Shown here: in pieces, positions 2,046-62,818 of the stretch
Layout of the letters: each line of letters opens with the position of its first letter
How positions within the stretch are numbered: the first letter of the stretch is position 1
Source: Octopus vulgaris
Lineage: Eukaryota
DNA: 64,000 bases
Direction: 5' to 3'
Assembly: GCA_951406725.2 (NCBI GenBank)
Contig: OX597822.1
Span: forward strand, 28,644,001-28,708,000
Made by a program: the position numbers and the translations under genes
Notes under the pieces: generated by a model
What the model saw: the letters and a program-made list of their open reading frames with translations, nothing else
Database searches by the model: none
What the model was told of the DNA's origin: nothing

Positions 2046-2085
<40 letters not shown>

Positions 2086-2277
2086 CTCAGTTGATGACCA
2101 CAGCATCTTGTTTTGGCTACACGCGGGTGGGAAGGGGCTGGTGACACAATCTTTTCATTCACACTTGGGTGAATTGGGTGATACTAGTTGCGGATTCTAG
2201 CTCGCTCTGATACTGAGTTGAGTTGGTGCCTTCTAGTATCTCAAAATTCAATATATAATCATTTATGATTATAGTAT

Positions 2278-2377
2278 TCTACGCTGAAGAGAAAAGAAGT
2301 TTGGGTAAGGTAGAATTATTTAATATTTAATTCTTATGCTTTCCTAAAAACTTGATTTCGAAACGTGCGTCCGTAGA
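2278..2377 (+). ncRNA. Type I hammerhead ribozyme with extended stem II
   Basis: TCTACG-CTGAAGA-[GAAA..~70-nt imperfect hairpin..TTTC]-GAAAC-GTGC-GTC-CGTAGA; 6-bp stem I, GUC cleavage triplet. Confidence 0.85.
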
Positions 2378-2564
2378 TAACTTAAAATTGTATGATAGAT
2401 TGCCGTCAATTCATTCTCACTTACCTGTTTGTGTCTGCCTTCCAATTGCTGTGTTTTTACTGAGATCTCCCTTTTTAGTAGAAGAAATAGCTATAAATCT
2501 TTGACTGCTATTTCTAAATTCGGTCTGTGGTAAGGCAATTCGTTGCTAAACCCTTTATTGCTTA

Positions 2565-2622
<58 letters not shown>

Positions 2623-21834: not shown

Positions 21835-21897
<63 letters not shown>

Positions 21898-21901
<4 letters not shown>

Positions 21902-22281: not shown

Positions 22282-22361
22282 AATTTAACCCTTAAAGGTA
22301 TTTTTTGACATGCTGGCCATTGATAAAATTTTCTCCCGAAATGAATTTTATCCTACATTAG

Positions 22362-22424
<63 letters not shown>

Positions 22425-24969: not shown

Positions 24970-25001
<32 letters not shown>

Positions 25002-25613
25002 ATATGTGTATATATATATCTGTAAATGTATGCATATATATATATGTATATGTATGCATGTATATGTGTGTATATGAATATATGTGTACGTGTATGTATG
25101 CATGTATATATATATATGTGTGTGTGTGTGTGCATGTGTGTGCGTGTTGTATTATACATATATATATATATATACGTCTACATCTTCATCTATGCGCATT
25201 TGCATTCTTTGTAGGTGTGTGTATATATTAGAGTGAATTTGTGTATACATGTACGCGGGCGTATGTTTATATATGTATATCCATACATATATGTATATGT
25301 GTGTGTATGTGTATATCTATGCATATCCATGTATATAATTACGTATGTGTATACGTGAGTGTATTAACACGAGTGTGTCAAACTTTGCACAGACGTTTGT
25401 ATCTTGCTTTACGTTCGAATATATGCACATATTTATCTCTGCTATGTATGTATATTTATGTATATATACACGTGTGTACCTACATATATGAGATCCTATA
25501 CATATATATATATGTATGTATTCGTCCATGCGTGTGCGTATGTGCGTGTATCTAGTGGTATGTATATACCCATATCCTTCGATGTGCGTGTTTGAGCGCG
25601 TATGTATATGTGC

Positions 25614-25661
<48 letters not shown>

Positions 25662-25966
25662 ATGTATGTATGTATGTATGTATGTATCTGTGTAAGTATA
25701 TGTGCGTCTAAGCACGAACACACACAAAAAATTTTCGTCTAAGTATTATCTTCCTTTCAACTTTTGCATCCTTTTCTCTCTCTCTTAACACTTACTACAG
25801 TGAAGACTCATTACGTCATTTTCACTAAACTAGAATGTTCCATGTTCATATTTGAATTTTTTGGCGTTTTAATATTTCCTTGTTTTATACTCATTCGCGA
25901 AGTTGATGGACATATAGCAGTACGTAAAATCGAATGAGAAAATCTCTAGTAAGACTCTTTACTGAT

Positions 25967-26008
25967 GTACCTGAAGAGACCCATAACGGGTCGAAACAAG
26001 TGTCGTAC
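25967..26008 (+). ncRNA. Minimal type I hammerhead ribozyme
   Basis: GTAC-CTGAAGA-GACCC-ATAAC-GGGTC-GAAAC-AAGT-GTC-GTAC; paralog of 3560 with intact GUC. Confidence 0.85.
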
Positions 26009-26422
26009 CCAATAAAATATTTTACTCAATCCATCTATTTTATTAATACTGTTACCCTAACCGCCACTACGAAGTTCCTACAGTAAATCTACGAATAACA
26101 ACATATAAACAAAACTGTACCGGTGCTTTACTCATCTTTTTATACATTTTGTATAATTTCTCCATTATATGTAAATATTTATGAGATGTATTCGTATCTA
26201 GAAGACCCAAAGAGTAGCAGGTAACGCTAAGTAAATGCTATGGACAGACCGTAGTTAAACTCTTGGTTCGATAATGATACGAGTGAGGAGTCTAAGGTGT
26301 GTCTTGTAATAGCATGCAAATATATGTTAGATAGAATGAGATAACAAAGCAAAGTTGTGAGGTTTCAGGACATGTATAATGGAATAGTCTTACATATACA
26401 CATATATATACACATATATATC

Positions 26423-26480
<58 letters not shown>

Positions 26481-26565
26481 GTATATATATATGCGTCCAA
26501 TAACACCATACATGTTCCAAGTCCTCGCGTTGTGCTTTCTCTTTGTTCATGTTTGGAGTAACTAC

Positions 26566-26639
<74 letters not shown>

Positions 26640-26642
<3 letters not shown>

Positions 26643-27440
26643 TCAACGAGATGTCCAATAGATGAGACTGCGACCTCATGCTTTTTAGCTAATGAGAAGA
26701 ACACTTTCGAGTTGGCACCAGTTTTCAGGGTATGAGTAGACCAGTTAATACAGGGGAAATTGAGATTGCCCATCATTAAAATATTATCAGGTTGACATTG
26801 TTGAATGAAAGACTTGATGTTCGTGAGGCAGTCCTTTAAGCACAATAGCGGTGCATGAGCTGACCTGTAGAGCCCAATTATTTCTAAATCATTGTGATAC
26901 TGATTCACAATAACCCTTGGAAAATGTGACATTTCTTTCAGCATTAAATGAGTCTTGTAGGAAAATGACAACTCCTACCATTTTTCTACCTCGGATTGTG
27001 GTGAAATTCCTTACTTTTACTTTCAGCTTCCAAGTGGGAGTTGTTAAGGTAGCTTTTAGTAAGGAAGAAGAAGGGAACGTGGTGAGTGTGGTCGGTAACC
27101 CGATCCTCAATGGATTGCATGGAAGGGTGTGCTTATGCCTTGAACATTGAGACTGGAGTAGTGGCCTGGTCAGACATTTTTAGAGGTCTCGGTAGAAATT
27201 TATGGGTTAATGACAGTGACGAGGATAGGTTTTGCACTGAGGTAGCGGCAGAGGTTGATTCCGTGTGATAGCCATGATATTCTTCTGGATCTCTTTGGAT
27301 AACCTGGTTAAGGAGATCTCCGTGGCTGGAGTTGTGTCTACATTCACAGATATGTTGATTGATTCGGACCAGATGGAGGATATGTAAACGGAACACTTTT
27401 CCCCTTAAATTTCTTTTTTTACGGAATCCCACGTTTTAGG
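26640..27440 (-). mobile_element. CR1/L2-like LINE endonuclease fragment (paralog of 5185-6700, internally deleted)
   Basis: Near-identical to copy A, with a deletion at ~26700-26715. Confidence 0.85.
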
Positions 27441-27675
27441 CTATGGAGATTTCGATTCTAAAGAAAACTTTTAAAAAATCCGCAAATACAAAATTTCAAT
27501 TTCCACTCCTTCTCCATTTCTTCATTTTGCACTTTTTCCGGTAATATTTTTTTGGCCATGTACGAACAAAAATACGAAAATTATGAATCTGAAAAATAAA
27601 ACTGTTTGTAAATTTTGAAGCAGGCTATTTACATGCTAGAAATAACAGCCGAATCTCAGCATTTATAGAGAGAAG

Positions 27676-27728
27676 GTCTTGCAGCTGTTTCTAGGATATT
27701 AATTAATAATATCACCTCATCGGAGACG
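27676..27728 (-). ncRNA. Hammerhead ribozyme, likely inactivated (GUA to GCA)
   Basis: Paralog of 6947-6998; conserved U16.1 mutated. Confidence 0.6.
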
Positions 27729-28052
27729 GTGTGAGAGGAAACTTAAGTCATAGTTAGTTTAAAGAGTGAGGTGGAGGAAAGGAAATAGATGTAAGATATG
27801 TATGGGTATTGATGTTGTAAATCCGTTTTATAGGCATAATGGTATATATGCAATATTCTAATATCCTTTGAGTAAAATCCCAAAGTCCAACAGCGTTTAA
27901 TATGAGTCCTTCCAAATATAGAGTTTATAAGCAATGTAAGATTCCATTATGATTGAGATCCATCAGATTTTTAAACTTGGTCATTCCCAGTAGGAAATTT
28001 ATATACAGTGATGCAGAGTCAAAGATTTGTGATTTAACTTTGCTCTCACACC

Positions 28053-28104
28053 GTCTTCGATGAAGGGATATTATTAATTAATATCCCAGAAACAGCTGTA
28101 AGAC
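28053..28104 (+). ncRNA. Type I hammerhead ribozyme (C3U variant)
   Basis: GTCT-TCGATGA-AGGGATATT..AATATCCCA-GAAAC-AGCT-GTA-AGAC; paralog of 7314. Confidence 0.65.
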
Positions 28105-28316
28105 CTTCTAGCTATAAAGGCTCTAATATCTATACAGCCTTGGTTTTTATCTTATTACGCAAAAATTCTTATATACACACGCTTACATAGAACAAACGTT
28201 GAACTCTTTATTCGCAATATCACCGAATCTGGAACTTAACTATGGTCTGTCTATAGCACTTATTCAGCATTACCTGATACCTTTGGATTTCGATGATACC
28301 ATTATCTCTTATATAC

Positions 28317-28395
<79 letters not shown>

Positions 28396-29919
28396 TGTGT
28401 CTGTGTTTGTCTCCCCATCATCGCTAGACAACAGACGTTGGTGGGTTTATATCCCCGTAACTTAACGGTTCGGCAACAGAGACCAATAGAATAAATACTA
28501 GGCTTACAAAGACTAAGTCTTGAGGTCGATTTGTTCAAAATTTAGATTCAGATGAACATTGTACTTAAGTCAAAGGCACCAGAATTTTGTATGGTATTAT
28601 CCACATAAATCAAATGGGGTGATTATAATCAAAATAAGCAACATGTATATCCGAGGTAGAGTAGTACAATTTTTTCATGCTACTTCATTTTATTAAACAC
28701 TGTAAGTATTACATCAGTTTTAAAATGTCGAGCAATCTTCACCCACTTATAGAATTTTCCAGTAAAACGGACCATGCACATTCTTAGCCCTATTTCATTT
28801 GCCAACATTATAAAGAGGGTAGATATATAGACAGAGAGGTTGATTTCATTCTTGAGAATATGATAGCAGCAGATTCACTCTCTGACTGTAGATTTTATCA
28901 CTTTGTTATTTAGATCTGTCAGTGGGGAGATGGATTTTATTTTTGGTTTGATGGAGACAAAGAATTTTTCTATTTATAGATATAGGAAGGGGTAGTATAA
29001 ATGTCAAAACCATAAACCTGTTCCCATTTTGAGGAATTCAGTTTAGATACATTTGAATGTATTATAACAAGAAGCTGGTAGGGTGAAGTTAGAGGGGTAG
29101 AGGAACATAGGCTACTAGTGCTCTAGAGATTTTAATGTCCTTTACCATTTAACAACCAGATTCCATATTAAGAAATTTAAGTAAATATTCTTTAGATAAT
29201 TTTCTAAAGGATTTCTATAAATTTAGTATCTTGTATAGGGATAGAAAATATAGAAATCATTTCATATTTATATAAATATATCTATATATATCCATTTCTA
29301 TTAATATATAATCATAATTAGCTAGTAAATGGTGATTTTTTATTGAGTTGAATTAAAAGAAAATGTTATACATAATATTTACTAACTGTGGAAAGAAAAA
29401 CTGTATTAATTTAGCACATATATCAGGAGTCAATAAAATATATTAAAAACGTAATGAAAGGGAGGTAATCGTGATGAACGAAGTAATTTCTCTAGATATA
29501 TAGAATTTTTTACAGTTATTTCTTATTTATATATCTTCATTTCTATTGATATATAATCATAATTAGCTAGTAAATGGTGATTTGTTTTATTAATGAGTCG
29601 AATTGAAAGAATATGTTATACATAATATTTACTTACTGTGAAGAAAAACTTTATCAATTTGATAAATATATCAGGAGTCAATAAGATATATTAGAAAGTA
29701 ATGGAAGGGGGATAATCAAGATGAACCAAGTAATTTCCCTAGATATATAGAGTATGTTTCCATCCTATATAGGAGAGTATCGAAAAAATTCTAATATCAT
29801 TATATTCAGATTTATATATACAATGAAATTTCTTAGTAATCTATGCAGGTTAAATATAAGCTAGTATGGTATATTAATTATTTATCATCTAACAATGAAA
29901 TTTTTAATTCTCACTCAAA

Positions 29920-30500
29920 TCATCATAATGTTGCTTTATCTGGAACTGAATACGACCAGGAAATCACCTTCTTAGATCTTGATAATGTAGTTCTTTCAAA
30001 TGAATAAATGAATGAAAATAGCGGAAATAATATAGAATCTTCTATTTTAAAAAAATATAAATCAATTGAAACGAGTAACCTAGTATATAAACCTGATACA
30101 ATAATTAGAAATGGTAAACAGATCATAAAAAGTTTAAGCTAGATAAAATAAATATAAATAGGAATTAAAAAATCTCTCCAACAGAGAAAAAAACCTAATA
30201 AACATAAATATAAGACTAAAGAGAATAACGAATCTCTGAAGGATATAGATAACATTAATCTTCCCAACCTTACTCAAATAAAAAAATTCAAAAGAAAAAA
30301 TGTTGTATGGTTAAATATCCCCTTCAACTGTACGATTTCTACGAACATATACGGCAAATTTAAGTCTATACTAGAAAAAAACTTCCCTACTTCCCATAAA
30401 TATTATAGAATAATTTCTAATAGATCAGTAAGAATATCATACTCTACTCTTCCAAATATGGGTACCATAAGAGCTAGACTAAATAGAAAAAATATCAAGT
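29920..30500 (+). mobile_element. Penelope-like RT/linker remnant (paralog of 8850-9435)
   Basis: Same decayed motifs as copy A. Confidence 0.6.
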
Positions 30501-30545
30501 TAGCTAGAAATGGAATAAATAGTAACAACAAGAACAAGAATAATG

Positions 30546-30614
<69 letters not shown>

Positions 30615-31851
30615 TTAATATTAGCAATAATAATGATAATATCAATGATATTAAAATGTGGAATGTTACGAAATTGGGAAAAGATTAATAACAAACAACC
30701 CTAACTTATATAACAATATAATTATAGATAAGGGAAATAACACTAATGCGAATAACAGCTCAAGTAATGAAATTGAAAACAGCTTGTTCCTAAATAATAT
30801 TAATACATAGAATCATAAAAGTTAGTATGGTATATAAATTTTTTATTTGGTTTCAAATTATTAAGATTTCAAAATATAGATATGGTCAGAATGTTATTAT
30901 TTAAAATTCTTAAACGTACGGGTAGCACAAAGTATACAAGATTCCCCTAGTTTGGAACGGTTATTCAATAAGTTTGTATTATTCCTATGTTTAAATCAGC
31001 CGAAACGTTGTGGTAACAACAAACAAGATGACACATATCCGTCCAGTGTAAATAATGTAAACACAAGTTTTCTTCCTTTCTTAAACTGCCTGGAACCCTA
31101 TTTTGTATATTTTCGATCCAAAAATGCACATCGGCTTCTCTCGATTAAACTTTCTCAAGAAGATTACCAAAGCTTCTAGACCAAACTACATATTCACAAT
31201 TTTAGCAGATGTTTTTTCATTATTTTTTGTTTACGTATGAATAAAATACTGGGAATTCAAACGTACATCATATTTCAAAATATAATCACAAATTCTCATA
31301 ACAATCAATCTGTTTTAAAATGCTTTAAAACTGATTCATCTTTTGTTGTTTATTCTTCCACTACCGTTTTCAAATCTTAGATCACAGGCAGATGTTATCG
31401 AAAATCGAACGGATTTTCACAAAAGTCCATCCATTGAAGATTTATTTGATAAACCTTATTACATGTTGATATTAAATTACCCGTTAAGGCAATGGGATGG
31501 CAGAACCATTAGCACACAAGGCAAAAGACATCGCAGCATTTCATCTCCTCGAAAATTGCTACCTTTTTGCCAAAACTTGGAATCAATATTACTGTATTGG
31601 TTCTTTCACATTTCCTTTCACTTAGCTATCGATTGCTCCCAATATCAACCATTATGCATTTGCATTTGACTCTCTTCTTCTATGTGTATACCAATGACCG
31701 TATGTACGATCATAAATGCATGAAAAATACATATATGTGTGTGTATGTGTGTGTGCGTGTATTCGTAAAACTTTATGCATACATGTACATACATATTCAA
31801 TTATACTCCTAAACATCTATACCTACACACACAAACACACACATACACACA

Positions 31852-31885
<34 letters not shown>

Positions 31886-32534
31886 AGCACATACATACAT
31901 ACATACATACATACATACAAAGATACATGGCAAGCATGAAGTCTATACACAGAGAAAACATGACTTACTCATTAATATCGCTAATAATGACTGTGTAGAG
32001 TGGGTTTCGTCGCTCATCAGATATTAGTTCGTTTCACGTCTTTTTCTGACGTATGATGGAGAAGGTGTACTCAGTGAAAATCACAGATGAAAACCATGTT
32101 GAAAATGTTATTCTTTCATGAAGTTCAATCATATTATTGAATAATATTATTTTCGCTCATGTACGTAGACTTAACGTTCACACTTTACATGCATAGATGA
32201 ATAAATAAATAAATAAATTTCTGATTGAACAAACAAGAGAAACATAATTCAGTATATGAATATATCATCTTTTTTATTTTTAATCGCAAGAATGTTACAA
32301 AAGTTACTCAAAGGCCTAGAGCTTCGTAGGCGGCACATAAAACACTGACTTCAAATCAGAGGACTAATTACATAAAAAGAGAATATTTCGTGAAGCCTAA
32401 TATTGGTAGGTCACGTGGATATAATGTAATTGTTACAATAATACTCATTAGCATTAACCCTATGCTTGCTAAAAGAAGAATATCATCTGCTCCGTCTATG
32501 GTATTACGTATCACTCTATGGGTACTCTTTTACT

Positions 32535-32940
32535 CTTTTACTCTTTTACTTGTTTCAGCCATTTGGCTGCGGCCATGCTGGAGCACCGCCTTTAATCGAG
32601 CAACTCGACCCCGGGACTTATCCTTTGTAAGCTCAGTACTTATTCTATCGGTATCTTTTGCCAAACCGTTAAGTGACAGGGACATAAACACAACAGCATC
32701 GGTTGCCAATCAATGCTAGGGGGACAAACAAAGACACAGAAACATACACGCACACATATATACATATAAACATATATACGACGGGCTTCTTTCAGTTTCC
32801 GTCTACCAAATCCACTCACAAGGCTTTGGTCGGCCCGAAGCAATAGTAGAAAACACTTGCCCAAGGTGCCACGCAGTGGGACTAAACCCGTAACTATGTG
32901 GTTGGTAAGCAAACTACTTACCACACAGCCACTCCTGCGC
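32535..32940 (-). mobile_element. CORE-type SINE family B
   Basis: Paralog of 11490-11880, ends ACACAGCCACTCCTGCGCC. Confidence 0.88.
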
Positions 32941-35559
32941 CGGTTATAAAGGTTTCGATATAAATTAAATTCGCTGTGCTATTGGATTCCTTACTCGCTT
33001 CCTTTAATTAATGAGTTTCGCCTCAGTTACTTCCCTTACATTAGCTTCCGTAAATTCACTATTGTTTTTCACTATTACCTCTAACCAAACACAAAACAGA
33101 TCTTCATTATTTCTTTAGAATCATTCATATTATGTCGTACCTTATCTGCTTAGTTATCATTTTACCAGTCGTATTATTATTATTATTATTATTATTATTT
33201 ATATTAGTTCTATTATATGTGGTTATTAGGCTCCAACTAGTGAATACACTAATTTTTTTTAAACTTGTGTGCTGCAATAATTTGGGCTAAACAAATATTC
33301 TGCCAATTAGGCTTTAAAAAAAGTAAATTATACGGCTTTAAGTGAGCTCACTTGGACTTTAAATGATATGGGCACTAAACATACCGTTGGGTATTCGAAA
33401 TGTCATCTCTGCTTGGAAGAATCATTCCATATCCTTACTTGTACTTTCAGATTATTTAATCCCAGAAATAAATTAGCAGTAAAATGCGCACATTTATTTA
33501 GAAAAGTTTTCATTATTTCCAAATAAGATTCCTTATTTACAAATCACGTAGATGAAAGTACACATAAGTTAACCCAGTTAGCTTATATTTCAAATTTACT
33601 TACGATTTATTAAATTTTCACTAATCCTAACTATTATATATTTTTTGGAAGGGGAGAAATAATATAAAATATGATTATAATGAATATTTACTTCACACAA
33701 CATATATTGATTAAGCTTATGTTAAAATCTCAGATAGTTTAGCAAAATCTTTTGTAATTCATAGAGCAGTAACTGAAACGGTATTGATTAATTGCTTTGA
33801 TTTCATAATAATATTAGCGCAAAGGTTTTGTAATTTAGATAATTATAAAAAAAGGGACATTTTTTCCTTCATGCAAATTCATATATATTAGTTACATAAA
33901 TGGAATAAATATGGCTTCAAATGAAGATTGGAACAGCAAGGCTAACTGGAAATATACAACCCGAGCCGAGCCATCAGAATTTATATTGACTGGACTCGAT
34001 TCAGAGAACGGATAAGGCAAGAAATGTTACGCTTTCCCAACAACATTAGCAATATCAGTTCACGTTTACACAGAAACCTGCAGTAATGTTACTTAAAATC
34101 TACTGATAACGTTTATTGCGAAGCTCAAGCTATATCGGTAAATTTCGTTGAAGATAACTTTCAAATTTCGTTCAGCATTTGAAATAGCAGCAAGCAAGCT
34201 ATGTTAATAGAAAGAATGACTATAACAGAGAGGCTTTTCAGTCTTCATAAACGTATAGAGGAACATGGGTATTCAACACGTAATAAAAAAAGAAATTTTG
34301 TATTTATGAAGTGCTTTTTATTATATTCTCTTTATATAATTTAATATTACAGACATAGAGTACGTAAGTTAAAATGCTCATCATTAGTGACAGGATATTA
34401 TGATTCATTTAATCCCGTTGTTTTACTATGTATTAGACAATAAGAATAACGGTTGAGGAGTCGACATCGTCTGATTATTATATGGTATATATTTTGTGGT
34501 TTGGATAAAATTTAATGTCATTTATTTAACACATTTATATGGAAGTAATACCACTATTAGAAATAGCGTTTACTATAAACTGATTTTGCTCAAGGCGAAA
34601 CAATTATTTTCTTATGCAACAAGACCAAAACTTTTGTTGAAATAAAACTGACGAAATGTTGTCAGCATTCTTTTTAACAACAGCAGATCTCTCCGTAGAT
34701 ATGCTATGGACAGGAAGGTAAATGCACAGCAACATCTTGTTTGCTGGACAAATAAGAGCTTATCAGCAGGGAAATAGTTGGATAATCAAAAGCGATAAAT
34801 AATCATAATTAATAGAGTTGGGATGCAAATGTGATACACGAATAATAGTCTCTTATCACACATAACTCTACAAATCCCGTCACATGTGACGCAATAAATG
34901 TTTTCCAAAGCGTTTTCCAAAAGGCTTTTTATTTCATAATTACTCAATATGTGTGTACATTTGTGGGGATGAAGTGATTATATAAGATAGGAAGAGAATG
35001 AGATTATATAAGTTAGGAAACTTAATTCCATAACAATTGCTAGATTAGCAAATTTTGCATGATTCTTTCAAATCGTTTGACCGAAATAAGAGACAATTCG
35101 CATATTCATAAAATGTTAGGTCAACAAAAAATAAATGAGCGCCTCATGTAAAGAATACAATAAAATTACAAACTATATGAGTTTGCAGCAAAAAGTGAGT
35201 CCATTCAACAGTTGACGTGAACAAGAAAATTTTTATATATTTAAGAACAGGAGAACTGGTCTGAGAGAAATAGACATGATTTTTACACTTGTAAGATGTT
35301 TATCTTATATGAATTTCAATAGATTCCAGAAAACATGACTTTTCTTTTGTTTTTTTCGAATCGGCATCTGAGGATTTTCCGTTCAAACTGATGTTAATTG
35401 TTGTCATGGTAACTTCAGCTGATTCACAATCACGAAGATCTATGGTGAAAGGCATTCCAGTTACGACCAACCTGTCGTATATTCAAATTTAATATATAAT
35501 TTATTATCCATCACTTTCATCTTCTTTCCACTGACGGTATTGAGTAACCACACTTATTA

Positions 35560-37020
35560 AATTCATACAAATTTTGTGTAACAACAAAACTGCAGAGTCA
35601 ATTAACAGACCCTTTGGTAGGTATATCCGTTGTGTTGTTTTACGAGAAGAAGTTACATCAACAGATTTTTTGAGGGCAGTTTTATAATTATTTGAAAATT
35701 CTGGAGAATACTGCGACGGACAGTCTTTGTAGATAGAAATGATACACAAATAAATAATCCAACGAATGAGTTTAAAATACAAAATAATAGAGAAAATTCT
35801 TCAATGCTTGTAAACGTAAACAGAAATGCGAATGTCCACGTTAATCTCATGATAAAGAATAGTTTTACACAAATGATGAACTCCATTTCATTATGTTTTC
35901 GTAAATATTTCGAAGAAAGTTTACGTGCCAAATAGAGCCCTCTAGCGGTGAGGGTAAATGCTACGAAATTAAGACATAAAATAATCATTCCGGGGATTGC
36001 AAAAAAATCATAGTAGACCTTTTCCATTTGTAATCCAGCAAATACTATTTCCATATTCTGGATAAAGTCCGTGATTTCCAGGAATATACTCAAATATCAG
36101 TGATACTGTTACTAATACAAGTGGACAGATCCAAGCATACAAGGAATACAATACAAATCTCTTGGTATGTTTTCCTTTACTTCGAATTTGTGTGAGTCCT
36201 GAGAAAGTGTACCAGGCATCAAATGACATGACATTCTTCCAAGAAGAAAGTCGCTAGAAACGAATAATGCATTACTACAGCTAAAGATTTTCACATCACT
36301 AGAGATGTAGTGATTTGTGATGAGATGAGAAAGAGAAGCTCAGCTGCAAACAGTGCTGACAAAAGACTAATGAGTAATTTACCTGGTAAGGTACGGAGAT
36401 CAGGTATACAGAGATAGACTATAATGGTGATTGCTAGAGCCGGAATAGAAATTACGAGTCCCACTAATGTGATATAGATCTCAGCCACGGAAAATTTTTA
36501 TATATCATTGATATTTGATATATTATTTGTACCATTGTTTACACAAATACTTATTATACCTTAAGAATCACGAATGAATTCTGATTGGTTCAGCAAACGT
36601 TGGGTATTATTTAAGTAGAGAAGACCATCATTAGTGACGTAATACTCAGATTCATTCAATTTTGTTGTCATACATTTTAGCGGCGGATGGTAGATAAATC
36701 GTAGATAGCGTATTTTGGACAGGAGGGCGACTGTACATGTCTATTTTCCGTTTTGTTTAATTTATTTGTTACCTTTACAGTATTGGTATGATAATCAAAA
36801 AGTTTTGTTTGGGGAAAAAGTTCTACTCTGCCAACTATTTCAAGATAATTCACTTTATAAATACCACTGGAAATCTCGTTGCATGTAGCACAACCTTTGT
36901 TTTTGTAAACTTTATGATATTTATGTTTACCATCTACATAGTATGGTTCCGTCTCTACATATATCAATGCCATTGGCTCAGACTCACATGCCATTATTTG
37001 TTCCTTATTATTGTTATCAC
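35560..37020 (-). pseudogene. Methuselah-like GPCR pseudogene (paralog of 19391-21405)
   Basis: Same TM motifs in fragments; TGG>TGA at ~36008, CAA>TAA at ~36561, frameshifts, ~23-nt deletion at ~36695; 5' end replaced by SINE/Gypsy sequence beyond 37020. Confidence 0.9.
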
Positions 37021-37023
37021 AAT

Positions 37024-37230
37024 CCCCTTGTGGGTAGTAAAGAAATAGGTATTTCGTCTGTCGCTACGTTCTGAGTTCAAATTCCGTCGAGGTCGACTTT
37101 GCCTTTCATCCTTTCGGGGTCGATTAAATAAGTACCAGTTTCGCACTGGGGTCGATATAATCAACTTAATCCGCTTGTCTGTCCTTGTTTGTCTCCTCTG
37201 TATGTAGCCCCTTGCGAGCAGTAAAGAAAT
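37024..37230 (+). mobile_element. SINE family A (partial tandem)
   Basis: GTTCAAATTCC..GTCGACTTTGCCTTTCATCCTTTCGGGGTCG; tail AGCCCCTTG..AGTAAAGAAATA. Confidence 0.85.
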
Positions 37231-40864: not shown

Positions 40865-43800
40865 TAGTTTTATTTTTATAGTGTGCTTTCACTTCACTAC
40901 CGAGCGCAGCTCTGTGTGCCTTGGGTATGTGCCGGGATTTGTTGTGATGCTCTGATGGTTATTGTATGGAAAGTGTTTTGCGTAGGTTGTGCGCAGTGCC
41001 TAGTAGTGCAATTTTCTGTATGTTATATGTGTTTGCAAGTCCTGGTGTTTTTGTTATGTATTTGTCTGAATATTTTTTTATCATGCCTAATGCACCTACT
41101 ATGATAGGAATTGTTTCTGTTTTTAGATTCCACTTTCTGGTTACCTCTATTTCCAGGTCTTTGTATTTTGAAAGTTTCTCCATTTCTTTTAGACACGTTG
41201 TCATCCGCTGGTATTGATACACCTATTAGAAAACATTTTTTTCTTCATGATCTCTGACAAATATATCTGGTCTGTTGGCCTTAATTTCTCTATCTGTGTG
41301 TATCGGCATATCCCAGAGTATGGTTGCTTTCTCGTTTTCTCTGACCTTTTCTGGTGTGTGCCTATACCATCTTTTTTCTGTTGTTATTCCATAATGTTGG
41401 CATAGCTTCTAGTGTATGTAGGTCCCAACTCTGTCGTGTCTGTGAATATATTCCTTCTTAGCAAGGACTGGGCAGCCAGAGATAATATGATTTATTGTTT
41501 CTTGTCCATCTCCACATATTCTGCAGTTACTTGTTATATTTCTTTTCATTACATGTTTTTGGTAATTTCTGGTGGGGAGGCTTTGGTCTTGTGCTGCAAT
41601 TAAAAATCCCTCTGTCTCTGCTTTGAGTCCTGAGCTTCTCAACCATTGCTGGGATTTTTCTTTGTCTATTTCTTTTGCATTTAGTTTAGTCCAGTATTTA
41701 CCATGAAGGGACTTTTTTTGCCATCGTCTTATCATGGGTCTTTGCTGTTCTAGTTTTAGTTTGGATTTCATTTGTTTTATAGCTTTTGTTGTTTCTTCAT
41801 CTTCTTCATATTTGTTAGGTGGTATGATGTCTTGTTTGTATTTCTCGGCTTCCTTAAATACTGAGAACAGTTTTTTGTTCTGCTCGTGTTTTGCCGCTAT
41901 TTGTATCAGTTTTCTTTCCTTCTGAAGTAGATATTTTTGCAGTCCTATGGTGGGGTTATTTTATAGTAGTTTTCCAGCTGTATAAGGCCTCTACCACCTT
42001 CTATACTTTGTATATATAGTCTTTCTATGTCAGATTTTGGGTGATGCATCTTAGATCCTGTCATTATTTTTCTTGTTTTCCTATCTATGTTGGTCAGGTC
42101 ATTTAGTGTCCAGTTAAGGATATTGTAGCTGTAACTTATAACTGGGACGGCTAAAGTGTTAATACCTATTATCTTGATTTTAGCATTGAGCTCTGTTTTT
42201 AGTATTGATCTAACTCGTCTATAATATACTTTTTTATCATCTCTTTCATTTGTGTGTGTTGTGTCTTATCTAGTTCATGGATTCCTAAGTATTTGTAAGT
42301 TTGGCTTTGGTCTAATTCTTTTATTTCATTGATTTTATCTAGTGTGATGTTGCTACTCTTAACTAGTTTTCCTCTTTTCAGGGTTACTTTGGCGCACTTT
42401 TCTAATCCAAATTTCATATCTATTTCTTTGGTAAATCCATGAACTGTCTTTAATAGTGTTTCCAGCTGTTTGTTATTTGCAGCGTATAGTTTTAGGTCAT
42501 CCATATATAAAAGGTGGCTGATCGTTTTGCCGTAACATTTATATCCGCATCCAGTTCTATTTAGCATATCAGATAGAGGTGATAGTGCCAAGCAGAAAAG
42601 GAGTGGAGAGAGCGTGTCTCCCTGGAATATTCCTCTTCTAATGGGGATGGCTTTGGTTTTCATGAGTCCCTTTTTTGTTTGGAGCTGTAGCACTGTTTGC
42701 CATTTATTCATAGAGTGTATTTTATAATTGTTGGTGCTACTTTGTTAATGGCTACTGTTTCGAGGATCCATGTGTGGGGGATGCTATCAAACGCCTTTCT
42801 GTAGTCGATCCATGCCAAACTGAGGCCTTTCTTCTTTCTGTGGCTGTCTTCAGTTATGGCTTTAGTAATCATTAGCTGATCTTTACAGCCGTATGAGCCT
42901 TTGCGGCATCCTTTCTGCTCTTCTGGAAACAGGTTGTTTTCGTCCAGGTGCTTGTTTAATCGTTGTGATATTACTGCAGTAAATTCTTTGTACATTGTAG
43001 GGAGAAAGGTTATAGGTCTGTAGTTTTCTGGTTTTGCTGTCTCATTTGATTTGGGAATTAAGATGGTTTTCCCCTTCGTGAGCCATTCAGGCATTGTCTC
43101 TGGCTCTGCCAGTATGTTGTTAAAGTTTTCAGTCAGCTTTTTGTGCATTCCTGTTAGATATTTCAACCAGACGTTGGGAATCTTGTCATGCCCAGGTGCC
43201 TTCCAGTTGCTTAGTCTTTGCAGTGCCTGCGTGACCTCTTCAGTTGTTATGGGGGTCCAAAGTTGCTCAGATGCTGAGTTTGTTGTTTTAATACTCCTCT
43301 TTTTGTTGTTCGTTCGCCGACCATATTTCTCTCCATAATTCTTCCACTTCTTCTGCCGTTGGTGCTGCAGTGATTTCTATTTTATTTTTGCCAAGTTCTT
43401 GGTAGAACTTTTGGAGATTGGAGTTGAACTGTTTGTTTTGTTCAAAGAAACGTTGGCGTTTCTCGTACCGGCGGATCCTTTGTGCTTTGGCAAGGATATC
43501 TTGCTTTAGCTTTTCTTTTATCTCAGGTAAATCTTTTTCTGTGATGTTGTATTTTCGGAGTATTTTTGTTTTCTTTTTGTTGCTTAGTAACGTTGATTGT
43601 CTACTGATTTCGTTAAGAACCGACAGATTTTTTCTCATTTTTTGTATTTTCTTTTGGATGTTATTTATCCACAGGGCTTGTTTGGGTGGTGGTACTCCTG
43701 TTTGTATGGGTTTGAGGGAGTATCCTGCTTCTTTTATGGCTACAGTGGCTGCTGCGTATACTAAGTCATTTAGCTCAGTGATGTCGCTATTTGTTTCAGT

Positions 43801-44992
43801 GGCTATTAGTTCTGTGATGGCTAGGTTTATGCTGTTTATAATTGATGTTGTTGTTTTGTCTATTTTGATTTTTGGGAGGTATGGTCGGTGGTCCATCTTG
43901 AGATCTGTGTTTTTCAGTTCTTTGATTATTCTACTTTTTATAGTTTCATAATCATTAGGCTCCCCTTCTTTGTTTCCAGGTTTTAGATTTGTGTCGCTTT
44001 TTTTCACGTTCGTATGTTTGTCTGTTGTGTTTTGGCTTCCTGTTTGTCGTGTATTATTATGTATCCTTACAGTCTGGGTTTGTTGTTTTTTGTTTACATC
44101 GCTTTTGTTGGAAATGTTACGTTTGTCTTCGTGTTTTACTGTTTCAGTGTTTATATTATTGGGCATTGTTGTGTGGCTTCTATCTACATTTTCCTGGTGT
44201 ATTTTTTCTTTTAAATGTTCTATTTCTATTTCTGATATTTTTTTGCGTTGAGAATATATCTTCGTACGTTAGCTAGTTTATTAGGGTTCATTGTTGTATC
44301 CAAGTCTATATTTATATTATTTTCCTTCCATATTTTATATGTATGTGTTGTTGTATTTTCATTCTTTGGGTAGAGCACTGCTGTAAAGTGAGCGTGTAGG
44401 ATAGAAATGTATTCCTCACGTATCCATTTATGTCTTTGAGGTTTTATTTGCGGGACGTGAGGAACAACGTCCGGCCCATTATTTTGACGGTCGTCATTTT
44501 CGTAGGGTACCGGTTCGTTCATTTCTGTTGTCACATTGTTTTGCACGTGTAGTTTTTCGTACATTTTATGTTGTAAGTTTAAAGTACGTACTTCCCGATT
44601 GTTATTCTTGGGTTGAATAATACCGGTATTATTTAATTTCTTCGTAGTTTTTTGTACATGGTGTTTGGGGCCGGAGATGATCTGGTGTTGATGGATCGTA
44701 ATGTATCACGCATGTTTACATGTGTTGTGTTAGAGGTGGAGATGATATCGAGTTAAAATACATCATTTCGTTTCGAAAATAGTAATAAATTTCAATGAGT
44801 ATTACTTACTCGGTTACAGTCCAATCCTTTGTCAGTTAATTTTTGGCTCTATACGACGTCTTTGTTTTCGATGTTTGTGGATAAATTTCGGAGCACTGTT
44901 TTATCGTTCTCTCATGTTAAACGTCCCCGGTGTTCCTCTCGTCCCCGGCGTTCCTCTCCGTCCCTGGTGTTCCTCTCCATCCCTGGTCTAAT
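40862..44992 (-). mobile_element. R4/Dong-clade non-LTR retrotransposon, full length, disrupted ORF
   Basis: NYRPIT, WIDYRKAFDSIPH, GIFQGDTLSP, YMDDLK, CRICG..ETINHIISGC, RHD, KYKDL..E, IVGALG; flanked on both sides by (TTA)n. Confidence 0.95.
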
Positions 44993-45797: not shown

Positions 45798-47710
<1,913 letters not shown>

Positions 47711-47718
47711 TGGCCCTT

Positions 47719-48246
<528 letters not shown>

Positions 48247-54244: not shown

Positions 54245-55110
54245 TGAAATTATTGTATACAGTGCTCAGTTGCACCACAACTTGTCAAAAGTGCGTATAA
54301 AGCATATGCAGTAATGTACAAATGTCTAGAAAGGGAACAGTGTATGAGTCAGATGGAGGGAAAAAAATCAGGTGTAGTGTTGGCAAATCTCAGGAAGCAT
54401 GGAAGTTTTGAAGGATGCAGTGCTCCAACAACTAACAACTGATGCCGGCAGTTTGTTCCATACTTCAGCAACTCTTAGCGTGAAAAATGTTTCCGAAAAT
54501 CATGGGAGCTGTGCTGTTTTCTGACTTTGTAAACATGTTCACGGGTGTTAGACAGGTGGAGTTTGAAAAGGTGCTCAGAGTTATTGTTTGTAACATGGTT
54601 AATAATTTTATGGGTGTCTACCAAGTCAGCTGCCAGGCGTCGGAGTTTCAATGTATCCATGCCCAGGGAAGTAAGGCGTTCAGAACATGGCAAATGCCTG
54701 ATGGAGGGTATTCTCTTGGTTGCACGTCGCTGAATGGTTTCCAGACGATTAATATCCTGGGCAAGATAGGGGTTCCAGACCGGTGATGCAAATTCCAGGT
54801 GAGGTCGCGCCATAGCTATATAAAGCCGCAGATAGCCGGAGAGCGGCTCGCAAAGGACTTAGTAAGTAATGCCAAGACACCCTCAGCCTTCTTGGCAATT
54901 TTAGCAATGTTCTTTGTCCAACGCAAATCGCTGTCGACAATAATGTCCTGGTTACGTTCACAAGAAGACTTTTTGAGATTAGTGTTGTGGAGGGAGTAAG
55001 TAGACGCTGGGTTTTTCCTCCCGAAATGCATGGTGGTACATTTGTCCACAGCCAGCTTGAGTTGCCAGTCCATGATCCACTGCTGCATTGTGTCCAGGTC
55101 TGATTGCAAT
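54245..55110 (-). mobile_element. CR1-like LINE 3' end (RT C-terminus + 3' UTR)
   Basis: QSDLD..QQW..DWQLKL..DKC..MHFG, RPHLEFASPVWNP, QRRATK, L..RR. Confidence 0.88.
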
Positions 55111-55497
55111 AAAGATCTTATCTTTTTACTCTAGCTCAATAATATTTCTTTAAGGGACAAAAGGCTATGTTTTGTAAGTCTTTATACATTTATTTATTTA
55201 TTTTTACTGCGTCTATTTTTACTTTTTACTCAATTTTTTTTTTATTTATTTTACTTTATTCTTGGTTTTATTTTAAAAAGTTTTATGTACCCTAGCATTA
55301 AATTAACATATAAGTCTTTTAACCTTTTCGATATTTATAATAAGTAATATATTGCCTGAAATACCTTCCACCTTAATTAAATATTAATAATAACTAAGAC
55401 ACACTTGAATTAAACTCTACATAATAATTTTCTATTGATTTTATATGGATGGACATAATATCACAATACATGACATTTATACCAATACATCTACTCT

Positions 55498-57755: not shown

Positions 57756-57835
57756 ATCACCGGAGTCATTCTTGTTGCTTATTTTTGTGTATAATATGCG
57801 AAGACACATTAGCTGGTACAACCCCCCTCACCTAA

Positions 57836-57929
<94 letters not shown>

Positions 57930-58038
57930 TTAAAGCAGCAGAAAATTCAAATTTTCTGCTGCTGTAAATTATGCATATTACTCTACCACTGGTATTTGAG
58001 TACTCTTTTTTCCACCTTGTTTCACATTTATGTGTTTA

Positions 58039-58095
<57 letters not shown>

Positions 58096-58098
<3 letters not shown>

Positions 58099-59190
58099 GT
58101 TGAAAACCCTATTCACAGGCCTCTCCGGTGGTCTCTACCGCGATGATGGCCTTTTTGCCCTCCACAAAATAAACCCCAGGACCACGGATGGGTTCCGGAA
58201 AAACCTTTACACTTTTTTTAAAAACTTAGGCCTTAGGATTACCTTAGATTCGAACTTAACCAAAGCTAACTTCCTTGGCGTTACCCTCGATTTAGAAACC
58301 CAATGAATCCCTTAGATACATAGACATTAATTCTAACCACCCCAAAAATATATTAGACAACCTAGTGAAAAGTGTCTCCATTAGGATATCTAGCCTCTCT
58401 GCCTCCGAGGATATCTTTAATGCCGCAGCCCCCTATTACAACGAGGCCCTGGCCCGCAGTGGCTTTAGAGATAAGATCACCTACATTAGCATAGCCCCAC
58501 GCCCACCCAAGAATAATATGCGAAGACACATTAGCTGGTACAACCCCCCTTCAACCGTGAAGTTTCAACACCCGTAGCTAAAATTTTCTTCACTCTCTTA
58601 CAAAAACACTTCCCCACCCAACATAAGTACTATACAATCCTTAATAAGAACACCATTAGACTCTCCTACTCCACCACACCCAATCTAGCTAGGAACCTAG
58701 CCAACAACAACGTCAAAAAACTTAATAAATCTACTTTTTCCGCAGCCCATCCAGCATCCGACAGCAACTGCAATTGCAACTGCCCTGATAAGACTACTTG
58801 CCCCCTCAACAACAACTGCCTACAGAAAGATCTCGTCTACATATGCGATGTACGATTAGGCCCCGATGATAAAAGAAAATCGTACATCGGAATGACCTCA
58901 AATAGTTTTAAGACTCGCTGGTACGCCACACACATTCGTTCCGGCGACCTGACAAATCTAACCAGACCACTCTCGCCGCCCATATCTGGCACCTTAAAAG
59001 GAACTCCATCCCCTTCAAGATCAAGTGGAGACTACTCCAGAGAGCGCGTTCTTACACGGGAGGCCATACTTGCTGTGACCTTTGTATTTCTGAGAGCTTG
59101 GAGATCTTATTCGCCAAAGGCCCTCTCCTCAACAAGATCTCGGAACACTCCTCAAACTGTATGCACAAAATCTATGCAAACTACAAAAAT
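58096..59190 (+). mobile_element. Penelope-like element 3' half (RT + Cys-rich linker + GIY-YIG endonuclease), frameshifted
   Basis: GLYRDDGL, FLGVTLDL, SIRISSLS, YNEALARSGF, WYNPP, CNCPDKTTCPLNNNC, VY..YIGMTSNSFKTRWY, CDLC. Confidence 0.92.
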
Positions 59191-59354
59191 TACAGACCCA
59201 CCCGGCCACCCGATTGACGACACCCCACCCACAAAACCCCCCACCCCCCACCACACCACCGTTCCTTCATCACCCCCAATTACCTTCTCTCCTAAGACTA
59301 TATACATATATGTATATATATATACATATGTATATATGCACATATGATTGATTG

Positions 59355-59540
59355 ATTGATTGATTCTAGTTTCAGCTTATGAGCTGTGGCCATGCTGGGG
59401 CACCGCCATTTGGTGTTGCTACTTGGTTTCACTTCATGGAGGCTTTCTAGCAACTGCTATTTGGTGCATGAGAGAGTTCGATGCAGCTGCCCTCATCTGC
59501 CCCTCCTGCCGTGAAGTTGGTTCATCTGGGACACCTGACA
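59355..59540 (-). mobile_element. CR1/L2-like LINE 3' terminus with (ATCA)n tail
   Basis: [10 protein letters not shown]; terminus GGCGGTGCCCCAGCATGGCCACAGCTCATAAGCTGAAACTAGAATCAATC. Confidence 0.75.
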
Positions 59541-59668
59541 GATGTATATATGTGCATATATATGTATGTGTGCATGTGTATATGTACATATGTATGTGTA
59601 TGTGTGTATATGTGTGTATGTGTATATATGTGCATATGTATGTATACGCGTGTATATATATATGTATA

Positions 59669-59710
<42 letters not shown>

Positions 59711-59999
59711 CAACAATTGAGGGTAAAATTAATTAATTAATTATTAATCAATTTCACCAAGTGTTCAGTATGTAAAGGGACCATTTAAGGCGAATTTAAA
59801 TTATTACATTATATAAAAGGGCTTAGTAAAATAAATTACTTTGCCACATACTGAACTCATTAGAAATAGTAGCTAAAAAAAACTTTTTTAAAACTATTTC
59901 TAATATTTAAAGAAAATCTCTCTCATATAGTGTTTTGCTCAATTCAACTCACGAAAGTATGGGGGTAAAGACATTAAAAAATCAAATGCAAAGGTTATT

Positions 60000-60052
60000 T
60001 GAGAACGTACGTTTCAAGATTAGTCAAACTCGACATTTCTATCATCAGCACA
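60000..60052 (-). ncRNA. Hammerhead ribozyme, array unit 1 (stem I mismatch)
   Basis: Minus strand TGTG-CTGATGA-...-GAAAC-GTAC-GTT-CTCA. Confidence 0.75.
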
Positions 60053-60560
60053 GAACTCCTTGGTTTGGATTTGAAAACACTGAAAGTGGGAGCATACCCT
60101 TTCGGCTTCTTATCGCTTCTGAAGATCTGCTCGAAACTAACTGCCAGCACACCCAAAATATGCAAGCGAAGAATTTCTGCTCTCCCTTTCCACCAGCGTG
60201 GGTTAAAATCAGTAAACACTATGCTTTTTCGGTAAATCCGAAACATTAAATAGAGAGAGATGAATTATAATTTCAACAATTGAGGGTAAAATTAATTAAT
60301 TAATTATTAATCAATGTCACCAAGTGTTCAGTATGTAAAGGGACCATTTAAGGCGAATTTAAATTATTACATTATATAAAAGGGCTTAGTAAAATAAATT
60401 ACTTTGCCACATACTGAACTCATTAGAAATAGTAGCTAAAAAAACTTTTTTAAAACTATTTCTAATACTTAAAGAAAATCTCTCTCATATAGTGTTTGCT
60501 CAATTCAACTCACGAAAGTATGGGGGTAAAGACATTAAAAAATCAAATGCAAAGGTTATT

Positions 60561-60613
60561 TGAGAACGTACGTTTCAAGATTAGTCAAACTCGACATTTC
60601 TATCATCAGCTCA
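60561..60613 (-). ncRNA. Hammerhead ribozyme, array unit 2
   Basis: Minus strand TGAG-CTGATGA-T-AGAAATGTCGAGTTTGACTAATCT-T-GAAAC-GTAC-GTT-CTCA. Confidence 0.8.
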
Positions 60614-61198
60614 GAACTCCTTGGTTTGGATTTGAAAACACTGAAAGTGGGAGCATACCCTTTCGGCTTCTTATCGCTTCTGAAGATCTGCTCGAAACTA
60701 ACAGTGCCAGCACACCCAAAATATGCAAGCGAAGAATTTCTGCTCTCCCCTTTCCACCAGCGTAGGTTAAAATCAGTAAACACTATGCTTTTTCGGTAAA
60801 AGTTTTTTTTTTAGCTACTATTTCTAATGAGTTCAGTATGTGGCAAAGTAATTTATTTTACTAAGCCCTTTTATATAATGTAATAATTTAAATTCGCCTT
60901 AAATGGTCCCTTTACATACTGAACACTTGGTGAAATTGATTAATAATTAATTAATTAATTTTACCCTCAATTGTTGAAATTATAATTCATCTCTCTCTAT
61001 TTAATGTTTCGGATTTACCGAAAAAGCATAGTGTTTACTGATTTTAACCCACGCTGGTGGAAAGGGGAGAGCAGAAATTCTTCGCTTGCATATTTTGGGT
61101 GTGCTGGCAGTTAGTTTCGAGCAGATCTTCAGAAGCGATAAGAAGCCGAAAGGGTATGCTCCCACTTTCAGTGTTTTCAAATCCAAACCAAGGAGTTC

Positions 61199-61251
61199 TG
61201 AGCTGATGATAGAAATGTCGAGTTTGACTAATCTTGAAACGTACGTTCTCA
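61199..61251 (+). ncRNA. Hammerhead ribozyme, array unit 3
   Basis: TGAG-CTGATGA...GAAAC-GTAC-GTT-CTCA. Confidence 0.8.
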
Positions 61252-61762
61252 AATAACCTTTGCATTTGATTTTTTAATGTCTTTACCCCCATACTTTCGT
61301 GAGTTGAATTGAGCAAACACTATATGAGAGAGATTTTCTTTAAGTATTAGAAATAGTTTTAAAAAAGTTTTTTTAGCTACTATTTCTAATGAGTTCAGTA
61401 TGTGGCAAAGTAATTTATTTTACTAAGCCCTTTTATATAATGTAATAATTTAAATTCGCCTTAAATGGTCCCTTTACATACTGAACACTTGGTGAAATTG
61501 ATTAATAATTAATTAATTAATTTTACCCTCAATTGTTGAAATTATAATTCATCTCTCTCTATTTAATGTTTCGGATTTACCGAAAAAGCATAGTGTTTAC
61601 TGATTTTAACCCACGCTGGTGGAAAGGGGAGAGCAGAAATTCTTCGCTTGCATATTTTGGGTGTGCTGGCACTGTTAGTTTCGAGCAGATCTTCAGAAGC
61701 GATAAGAAGCCGAAAGGGTATGCTCCCACTTTCAGTGTTTTCAAATCCAAACCTAGGAGTTC

Positions 61763-61815
61763 TGAGCTGATGATAGAAATGTCGAGTTTGACTAATCTTG
61801 AAACGTACGTTCTCA
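61763..61815 (+). ncRNA. Hammerhead ribozyme, array unit 4
   Basis: Identical motif 564 bp downstream of unit 3. Confidence 0.8.
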
Positions 61816-62000
61816 AATAACCTTTGCATTTGATTTTTTAATGTCTTTACCCCCATACTTTCGTGAGTTGAATTGAGCAAACACTATATGAGAGAGATTT
61901 TCTTTAAGTATTAGAAATAGTTTTAAAAAAGTTTTTTTTAGCTACTATTTCTAATGAGTTCAGTATGTGGCAAAGTAATTTATTTTACTAAGCCCTTTTT

Positions 62001-62038
<38 letters not shown>

Positions 62039-62189: not shown

Positions 62190-62777
62190 ATTATATATAT
62201 ATATATACATATGTTTGTATGCGTGTGTATGTATTTATGTATGTATGTGTGTACATGTGTATATATTTATATGTATGTATATGTATATGTATATGTTTAT
62301 GTATGTATATATATATGCATATATGTGTATTTATATGTGTGCATGTATGTATGTATGTATGTATATGTGTATATGTGTATATATATATGCATGTATGTAT
62401 TTATGTATATATATATGTGTGTGTGTATGTGTATATGCTTGTATATGTTTATGTATGCGTATGTGTATTTATATTTACATGTGTATTTGTATATAAATGT
62501 ATGTGTGTATGCATGTATATATTTGTGTATGGATGTATGTATATATATACTTTATTTTAAGCAGCAGAAAATTCAACAAAATCTGTTACTCTGAGTTTCT
62601 CGTTGCCGTTCATCAGACAGTTTTTGCTAGAATGGAACTTATATATTAATTCAATCTATTACTCTTACAAACGCTACACCTTTAAAAAGAAATGGACTTA
62701 AAATAAAGCATATTACTCTACCACTGGTATTTGAGTACTCTTTTTTCAACCTTGTTTCACATTTATGTGTTTACTCC

Positions 62778-62818
<41 letters not shown>

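Follow-up and report, generated by a model that had tools for sequence, protein, structure and literature searches.

Metazoan non-LTR retrozymes are ORF-less tandem units that carry one type I hammerhead each, have a GC content below 50% and are self-paired (Cervera and de la Pena 2020, PMC7229834). Their consensus lengths are given as 51–972 bp by Li, Clavereau and Pollet (2026, bioRxiv 10.64898/2026.07.22.740005), who argue that these elements derive from PLEs as non-autonomous forms and report that only one of nine Xenopus dimers cleaved. Among PLEs, tandem and inverted 5′-truncated copies and a bias towards (TA)n are standard, non-autonomous multicopy forms have been described, and O. bimaculoides is among the species with an entry for an HHR-bearing Hydra family that targets (TA)n (Craig et al. 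2021, PMC8557442). In the one reconstituted element, the Poseidon PLE of Anolis (PAc), reverse transcription begins at an internal site within a stem-loop 3′ of the hammerhead, both target strands are nicked and extended, and hammerhead cleavage is dispensable for insertion (Frangieh et al. 2024, PMC11167929). Pairs of hammerheads on opposite strands, 100–700 bp apart, have earlier been noted in Schistosoma (Cervera and de la Pena 2014, PMC4209133). As for cephalopods, 235 hammerhead loci were counted in the giant squid genome (PMC6962438), and a repeat annotation of O. vulgaris holds 31 recently active Penelope-like families, with no mention of hammerheads or retrozymes in its main text (PMC13282606). 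Our literature searches showed no octopus retrozyme family, although supplements and Repbase may list a cephalopod one.

A two-armed array between (TA)n runs

We analysed a window of 64,000 nucleotides from Octopus vulgaris (contig OX597822.1, positions 28,644,001 to 28,708,000). Positions 59703–62008 hold an insert of about 2.3 kb in which two divergent arms of a unit of about 562 bp, the left one on the minus and the right one on the plus strand, run outwards from a junction. The original prediction of such an inverted and tandem array, with its junction near 60800 and (TA)n at both ends, was thus borne out with the following boundaries, where unit positions are numbered from the predicted hammerhead cut:

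59703..60800, minus strand: left (inverted) arm, 1098 nt, 1.95 units, from unit position 329 to 299
60798..62008, plus strand: right arm, 1211 nt, 2.15 units, from unit position ~116 to 194
60798..60800, no strand: inversion junction, AAA common to both arms, a 3-nt microhomology
59653..59706, no strand: left (TA)n target flank
62001..62031, no strand: right (TA)n target flank, overlapping the TA-rich unit end

The two tandem runs lie back-to-back; their units measure 561–565 bp, have a GC content of 33% and are mutually 98–99% alike. No target-site duplication is readable within the (TA)n flanks. The left arm terminates on a TATA that merges into (TA)n; its end sits at one of the 7 positions, out of 564 in the unit, that offer at least 4 nt of alternating TA, and it reaches 105 nt further 3′ in the unit than the end of the right arm. 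Five substitutions distinguish the copies and, since each of them is private to one copy, the insertion is young. Several further differences between copies are homopolymer indels, and a 2-bp CT indel divides the copies in another way: the left-inner and right-outer copies have CT, the left-outer and right-inner ones lack it. Taken as a whole, the array is a real, young, ORF-less insertion of the PLE type.

Inverted structures of the PLE type are known to trouble assemblies (PMC8557442), and homopolymer indels among the inter-copy differences would also suit an error, so we considered whether the inversion, as opposed to the unit, could be an assembly artefact (a fold-back or a mis-join). In the nearest mirror register, however, 13 of 995 columns differ between the arms, among them the CT indel in anti-mirror order, which is the reverse of what a fold-back would give and argues against one; moreover, the left flank does not mirror the right one, and each arm has its own start and end positions within the unit. 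Other (TA)n-bounded inserts of the window, at 4503–4794, 57930–57967 and 21871–22362, likewise have inverted halves. At least half of 69 sampled words of 60700–61400 were contained in 16 of the 24 listed sequencing runs, which come from seven studies with four organism codes and one of which may be the source of the assembly; no RNA run was listed as containing them, which counts neither way. A simple fold-back, which had been named as a possible refutation, is thus argued against by the arm differences, the reversed CT pattern and the flanks, and we regard an artefact of either kind as most improbable.

Compared with described elements, the array shows the partial tandem, the inverted 5′-truncated copy and the (TA)n target of PLE-type insertions. 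These it has in common with EN+ PLEs and their non-autonomous derivatives (Hydra, Naiad and non-autonomous Chlamys such as MRC1; PMC8557442), as well as the lack of a readable target-site duplication, a hammerhead near the 3′ end and an extension at one end only; it differs from them in having no ORF and in a left-end extension of 105 nt as against 30–40. It equally shows the sequence traits of non-LTR retrozymes, with at least two consecutive hammerhead units that are non-coding, low in GC, of suitable length and predicted to be self-paired. In contrast to the single tandem run described for non-LTR retrozymes, the array has two divergent arms leaving one junction and a 3′ end that appears to be set at a predicted, conserved stem-loop; its unit is also longer than the cloned circles of 170–400 nt, and it is known from sequence alone. 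The suggestion that the unit is longer than typical retrozymes did not hold up, as 562 bp lies inside the published range of 51–972 bp, and we dropped unusual length as a feature. Plant LTR retrozymes, with a type III hammerhead in LTRs and a 4-bp target-site duplication, differ from the array with its type I motifs, tandem arrangement and (TA)n flanks, and no LTR/PBS/PPT layout was seen in the array unit. Overall, the classification as a retrozyme-like, ORF-less, PLE-type insertion made at the outset is supported.

Hammerhead motifs of the units

Four hammerhead motifs are found in the array:

61186..61262, plus strand: type I hammerhead, core 61203–61247, predicted cut after 61247
61750..61826, plus strand: type I hammerhead, core 61767–61811, predicted cut after 61811
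60550..60626, minus strand: type I hammerhead, core 60609–60565
59989..60065, minus strand: hammerhead motif, core 60048–60004, with a substitution at 60050 that disrupts helix I

With U17 at 61247 and 61811 on the plus strand and at 60565 and 60004 on the minus strand, the predicted spacings of 561 and 564 nt are confirmed. In the array hammerhead the core is complete, helix I measures 4 bp and is predicted to extend further, helix III has 2 bp and U17 is present, and the palindromic octamer of helix III and loop 3 (the 2-bp helix with a palindromic tetraloop) is present in all four copies. A 4-bp proximal helix I, a long helix II and a palindromic helix III are also features of minimal PLE hammerheads, some of which have U17 and in which, however, a G10.1–C11.1 pair is highly conserved (PMC4209133); in the array, helix II is closed by U10.1·U11.1 in its place. 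An atypical status of U17 was considered and rejected, because natural minimal hammerheads, whose cleavage in vitro is poor, can have it too (PMC4209133).

We searched for this architecture with a type I descriptor that tolerates a mismatch at the first pair of helix II and that was chosen with the array motif in view. It matched seven times in the window as compared to a mean of 0.04 (maximum 1) in 50 shuffled windows, and among 5000 dinucleotide-shuffled units it matched 10. The seven matches comprise three of the four array copies and motifs at +2284, +4667, +25971 and −38945. The outer left copy fails because the substitution at 60050 breaks helix I. Thus, both cores of the right arm and the inner core of the left arm fit the descriptor, while the outer left one carries a helix I mismatch. 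No hammerhead family was among the 77 Rfam matches, nor among the four of a second scan; the matches are microRNA and snoRNA models on TA-rich DNA, all under their gathering scores. Exact hammerhead patterns gave no stretch in metagenome and viral contigs, which are non-animal collections.

Activity of such motifs has been linked to an MFE below −5 kcal/mol, to G10.1–C11.1 and to loop–loop contacts; the array motifs reach −7 to −9 kcal/mol and have U·U at 10.1–11.1. These values were obtained for the constrained, hammerhead-compatible fold, which lies 4 kcal/mol above the monomer MFE, and the predicted pair probabilities in context are about 0.18 for helix I and about 0.13 for helix II. In predicted folding, a double hammerhead (−28.2) is favored over two monomers (−22.0), the free dimer being lowest (−34.2). 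The palindromic helix III supports the notion that the hammerhead geometry is suited to dimers. Axolotl HHR_Amex2 resembles the array in having U·U at the base of helix II, and its monomer reaches 22% cleavage within one hour, its dimer doing better (PMC7229834). Judged by these models, the array hammerhead looks weak, and weak activity would be expected of it.

Coding content and the neighbouring PLE fragment

The units had been called non-coding, and this is borne out. A tblastn search with 150 PLE-like proteins, relatives of the neighbouring PLE fragment, gave 22 matches at E ≤ 10 on the array with a best E of 0.71, while the same search was strong on true PLE fragments at ~58100–59208, near 9240–9430 and near 30270–30510. 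None of the eight array frames scanned matched Pfam (12 frames were scanned in all, four of them from the PLE fragment). The longest ATG frames in the array have 97, 84 and 82 aa, and the frame that opens at the hammerhead ATG runs for 16 codons in the unit and for 11 residues in the equivalent frame of the diverged relative described below. A single RT plus GIY-YIG ORF between repeats, as is characteristic of autonomous EN+ PLEs, is absent from the array.

The fragment itself lies outside the element:

58100..59208, plus strand: PLE fragment, 5′-truncated RT-thumb/linker/endonuclease in four frame-shifted pieces

It had been placed at 58096–59190; the PLE-like match is real, and its extent is corrected to ~58100–59208. 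Its family assignment draws on 2979 relatives returned by a full HMMER search, of which the Pfam support for RT is weak (RVT_1 below cut-off in two of eight long matches), and on Atlas clusters that have GIY-YIG in 21–27% of their members. A word-based protein search with one frame of the fragment yielded 0 of 143 candidates, and a PDB search with a fragment frame gave matches at E ≥ 0.16 only. The best DNA match of the fragment (57930–59300) to the unit spans 12 nt at E 0.09, and nearness is therefore no evidence of a partnership. The proposal that the adjoining fragment bears on the mobilisation of the array is not supported, and its adjacency was rejected as an argument for partnership, the fragment being broken and without shared DNA.

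These comparisons also bear on whether the unit is the pLTR or 3′ non-coding repeat of a coding PLE, the locus then being a heavily 5′-truncated tandem and inverted insertion. A defined 3′ end with a hammerhead nearby is a PLE feature (PMC8557442), in Xenopus a close relationship links retrozymes to pLTRs (bioRxiv 10.64898/2026.07.22.740005) and axolotl has PLEs with tandem hammerheads (PMC7229834). Against this, the array makes three complete head-to-tail passes from a unit 3′ end into the unit that follows without an intervening ORF, lacks a PLE protein match and shares no DNA match with the PLE fragments compared. We hence consider this origin distinctly improbable.

A diverged relative and the 3′ end

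The window contains a diverged solo relative of the unit, whose combination of hammerhead, long arm and terminal stem-loop is a new observation. The features compared are:

2084..2565, plus strand: diverged solo relative, between two (TA)n runs
2284–2371, plus strand: hammerhead core of the relative, with G10.1–C11.1, GUC and a different yet paired helix I
2529–2552, plus strand: terminal stem-loop of the relative
61592..61885, plus strand: predicted long irregular arm around the hammerhead, 61592–61633 pairing with 61845–61885
61909..61956, plus strand: predicted long hairpin, conserved in the relative at 2483–2515
61969..61994, plus strand: predicted terminal stem-loop with an AA/AA internal loop, candidate RT start signal
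+60842, +61404, −60408 and −59845: starts of the other copies of the terminal stem-loop

The relative is collinear with the last unit (61585–62001 against 2100–2559) at a score of 125.5, which none of 1000 shuffles reaches (66 ± 9, maximum 102). The next-best window tiles for the 3′ part of the unit score 67–73, and the five inspected are AT-rich noise without the motifs. Folded separately, unit and relative are both predicted to form a long arm that encloses the hammerhead, in the relative by pairing of 2099–2158 with 2392–2453, then a hairpin and then a small stem-loop. The folding z-score is −6.9 for the linear unit and −4.8 for the relative as compared to −2.2 to +1.0 across 20 background tiles.

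The spacing of these parts is preserved as well. From the hammerhead cut to the start of the terminal stem-loop there are 158 nt in unit and relative alike, and from the cut to the end there are 197 nt in the right end of the array and 194 nt in the relative, a comparison of two independent insertions. As the right arm and the relative both end 13–14 nt past the terminal stem-loop, the right end reads, at the level of sequence, as a defined 3′ end of the family and not as a random point on a circle. A random circular permutation of both array ends was accordingly rejected, the right end coinciding with that of the relative. Modelled in this way, the defined right end just 3′ of the terminal stem-loop is likely to mark the start of RT. 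In the relative and in the left arm alike, some 15 nt separate the 5′ end from the long arm that follows; with two cases to compare, this shared offset possibly reflects a fixed start too.

All eight pairs of the terminal stem-loop are kept between unit and relative, two of them by two-sided changes and one by a one-sided change. This covariation is not significant, since column shuffling attains the observed value in 130 of 500 trials, and it concerns two sequences from which the structure itself was derived. A structure-only descriptor of the stem-loop found only the five array copies and the relative, and a degenerate pattern of it gave no match in the metagenome and viral contigs, again non-animal collections.

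If the unit were a DNA-level element or satellite (a Helentron- or MITE-type tandem carrier, or a local duplication with inversion), the hammerhead would be a relic and the hairpins would act in DNA. The segment of the unit indeed folds equally well on both strands (z −3.2 sense, −3.4 antisense), and MITEs with tandem repeats occur in molluscs (PMC3879986). However, the relative keeps the hammerhead core, helix I pairing and stem-loop spacing despite its divergence, and 16–18 G·U pairs are among the confident pairs of each fold, that of the unit and that of the relative. In addition, no distinct terminal modules flank the repeats, and both ends face outward into (TA)n in a PLE-like manner. A strand asymmetry of folding is seen in the relative (−4.8 sense, −2.7 antisense) and not in the unit segment. 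On this evidence a DNA-level origin appears very improbable.

Possible template and insertion route

On the original prediction, the hammerheads would release monomers of about 562 nt, which could circularize and be re-inserted by a PLE RT; in this form, the RT would copy the monomer circle repeatedly to give each arm. This agrees with the published retrozyme model, circles having been shown in coral, mussel and axolotl (PMC7229834), and the unit is predicted to be strongly folded as a circle (z −6.3, reached by 0 of 60 shuffles). That the U·U hammerhead of axolotl does cleave, and better as a dimer (PMC7229834), and that U17 is present in natural minimal hammerheads (PMC4209133) likewise speak for it. 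The CT indel speaks against it. Copies of one monomer circle should be identical, yet CT is present in two copies and absent from two, across both arms, which identical monomer copies do not explain; a template with two variants, i.e. a linear multimer or a dimer circle, is needed unless conversion or polishing error intervened. Furthermore, the pairing of the hammerhead is predicted to be weak, eight of the nine Xenopus dimers did not cleave (bioRxiv 10.64898/2026.07.22.740005) and cleavage was dispensable for insertion in vitro (PMC11167929). In view of the right end shared within the family, the two-variant CT pattern and the dispensable cut of the reconstituted PLE, a monomer circle is no longer the evident template and we consider it unlikely.

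Read from the sequence, the CT pattern instead suggests an uncleaved multimer as the template. A dimer circle may have served instead, or copying may have switched between two circles, and the pattern could alternatively stem from one mutation followed by conversion between the inverted arms, or from polishing errors. Since the reconstituted PLE starts internally and extends both strands without cleavage, we read the locus as one insertion. Our preferred reading, which we hold to be moderately likely, is that the array is an ORF-less 562-bp hammerhead tandem unit between (TA)n runs, probably a non-autonomous PLE (non-LTR retrozyme), which a PLE RT-endonuclease probably copied in one event from uncleaved multimeric RNA.

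By this uncleaved-multimer route, a tandem source would be transcribed, and multimers would either be left intact by the weak hammerhead or be re-ligated. A (TA)n-targeting PLE protein would nick both target strands. One nick would prime RT at a fixed start that lies about 195 nt beyond the cut, immediately 3′ of the terminal stem-loop, and give rise to the right arm, while the other nick would prime 105 nt further 3′ at TATA and give rise to the left arm. The two cDNAs would then be joined via the 3-nt microhomology (AAA). Priming of this kind from two strands resembles the twin priming of L1.

The proposed route shares with PAc an internal start at a stem-loop, the use of both strands, an AT-rich target and an uncleaved template (PMC11167929). 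In PAc, however, the start lies inside the ORF, about 85–92 nt past the cut (111–118 nt into the ORF, with the cut at 26), and its loop is AC-rich (PMC11167929), whereas the proposed start in the array lies ~195 nt past the cut in a non-coding RNA, beside the stem-loop with the AA/AA internal loop. Extending this, we tentatively propose, although we are more inclined to doubt it than to accept it, an octopus retrozyme family in which a conserved non-coding signal, made up of the long arm, the hairpin and the terminal stem-loop 158 nt past the cut, would recruit a PLE RT in trans and set its start; the present locus would then be a case of both strands primed on one uncleaved, heterogeneous multimer. 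The further ideas of a circular RNA and of a dsRNA across the junction as an ADAR or small-RNA substrate are possible but speculative.

Significance and window context

Retrozymes are already known as a kind from many animals, and the locus alone changes little. With the array they reach octopus, from which both hammerhead loci and PLEs that target (TA)n had been reported before. Its use is mechanistic: on the questions of which RT animal retrozymes employ, whether a circle or a linear multimer is copied and where copying starts, a young two-armed insertion together with a diverged relative points to one particular stem-loop of 26 nt and to a start site, both accessible to direct testing. What deserves follow-up is the conserved terminal stem-loop, which may signal where RT starts. 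If a signal for recruitment in trans proves true, animal retrozymes could move without a monomer circle, and a substrate of 560 nt would be at hand for testing how PLE proteins choose their non-autonomous passengers.

Elsewhere in the window, a hammerhead-bearing insert at 4503–4943 has an empty paralogous (TA)n site at 26394–26492. In keeping with an octopus host, the closest protein to a GPCR frame at 19807–21405 is one of O. sinensis at 88% identity, compared with 70% for one of O. bimaculoides.

Further hammerhead motifs and (TA)n-associated inserts

A diverged solo relative of the array unit, the ~562-bp non-coding repeat of the hammerhead array at 59703–62008, is located at 2084–2565 (+), where it is flanked by a (TA)n run on each side and carries a hammerhead more canonical than that of the array unit. 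Additional type I hammerhead motifs are present at +25971 and −38945, both with G at position 10.1 (first helix II pair) and GUC, and the stretch holding the former has a duplicate at 3389–3986.

Distinct from the array unit is another (TA)n-embedded family, with one piece at 62554–62779 (−), which contains a hammerhead-like core at −62616, and one at 57930–58040, which includes a short inverted half; the two match at 96% (57966–58040 versus 62701–62775). The insert at 21871–22362 has (TA)n on its borders; its inverted half is long (81% across 392 columns), and a search of this insert for a hammerhead core found none. Two further inserts, 4057–4394 and 4503–4943, both lie within one (TA)n array, while the corresponding (TA)n array in the paralogous block at 26394–26492 is empty of both. 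The latter insert has an inverted half (4503–4794, 79%) and harbors a hammerhead motif at +4667.

Other retroelements and the large duplication

Upstream of the truncated Penelope-like element (PLE) fragment, immediately ahead of a (TA)n run, 57791–57828 is an exact 38-bp copy of 58513–58550, which is internal to this fragment. Additional retroelement-related stretches in the window are:

PLE-like protein remnants, in paralogous pairs (+)
~9240–9430
~30270–30510
~17119–17322
~33332–33493

Non-LTR retrotransposon RT-like frames, frame-shifted
12322–15853 (−)
41412–44705 (−)
45804–48117
54478–55130 (−)

Close to the left side of the array is a repeat (~59350–59530) which may resemble an octopus SINE tail. 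A large tandem duplication (~2600–21000 versus ~24900–37000, 80–95% identity) takes in Mth-like/adhesion-type GPCR frames, one at 19394–21516 that is broken into two frames and a fragmented-looking one at 35656–37063 (−).
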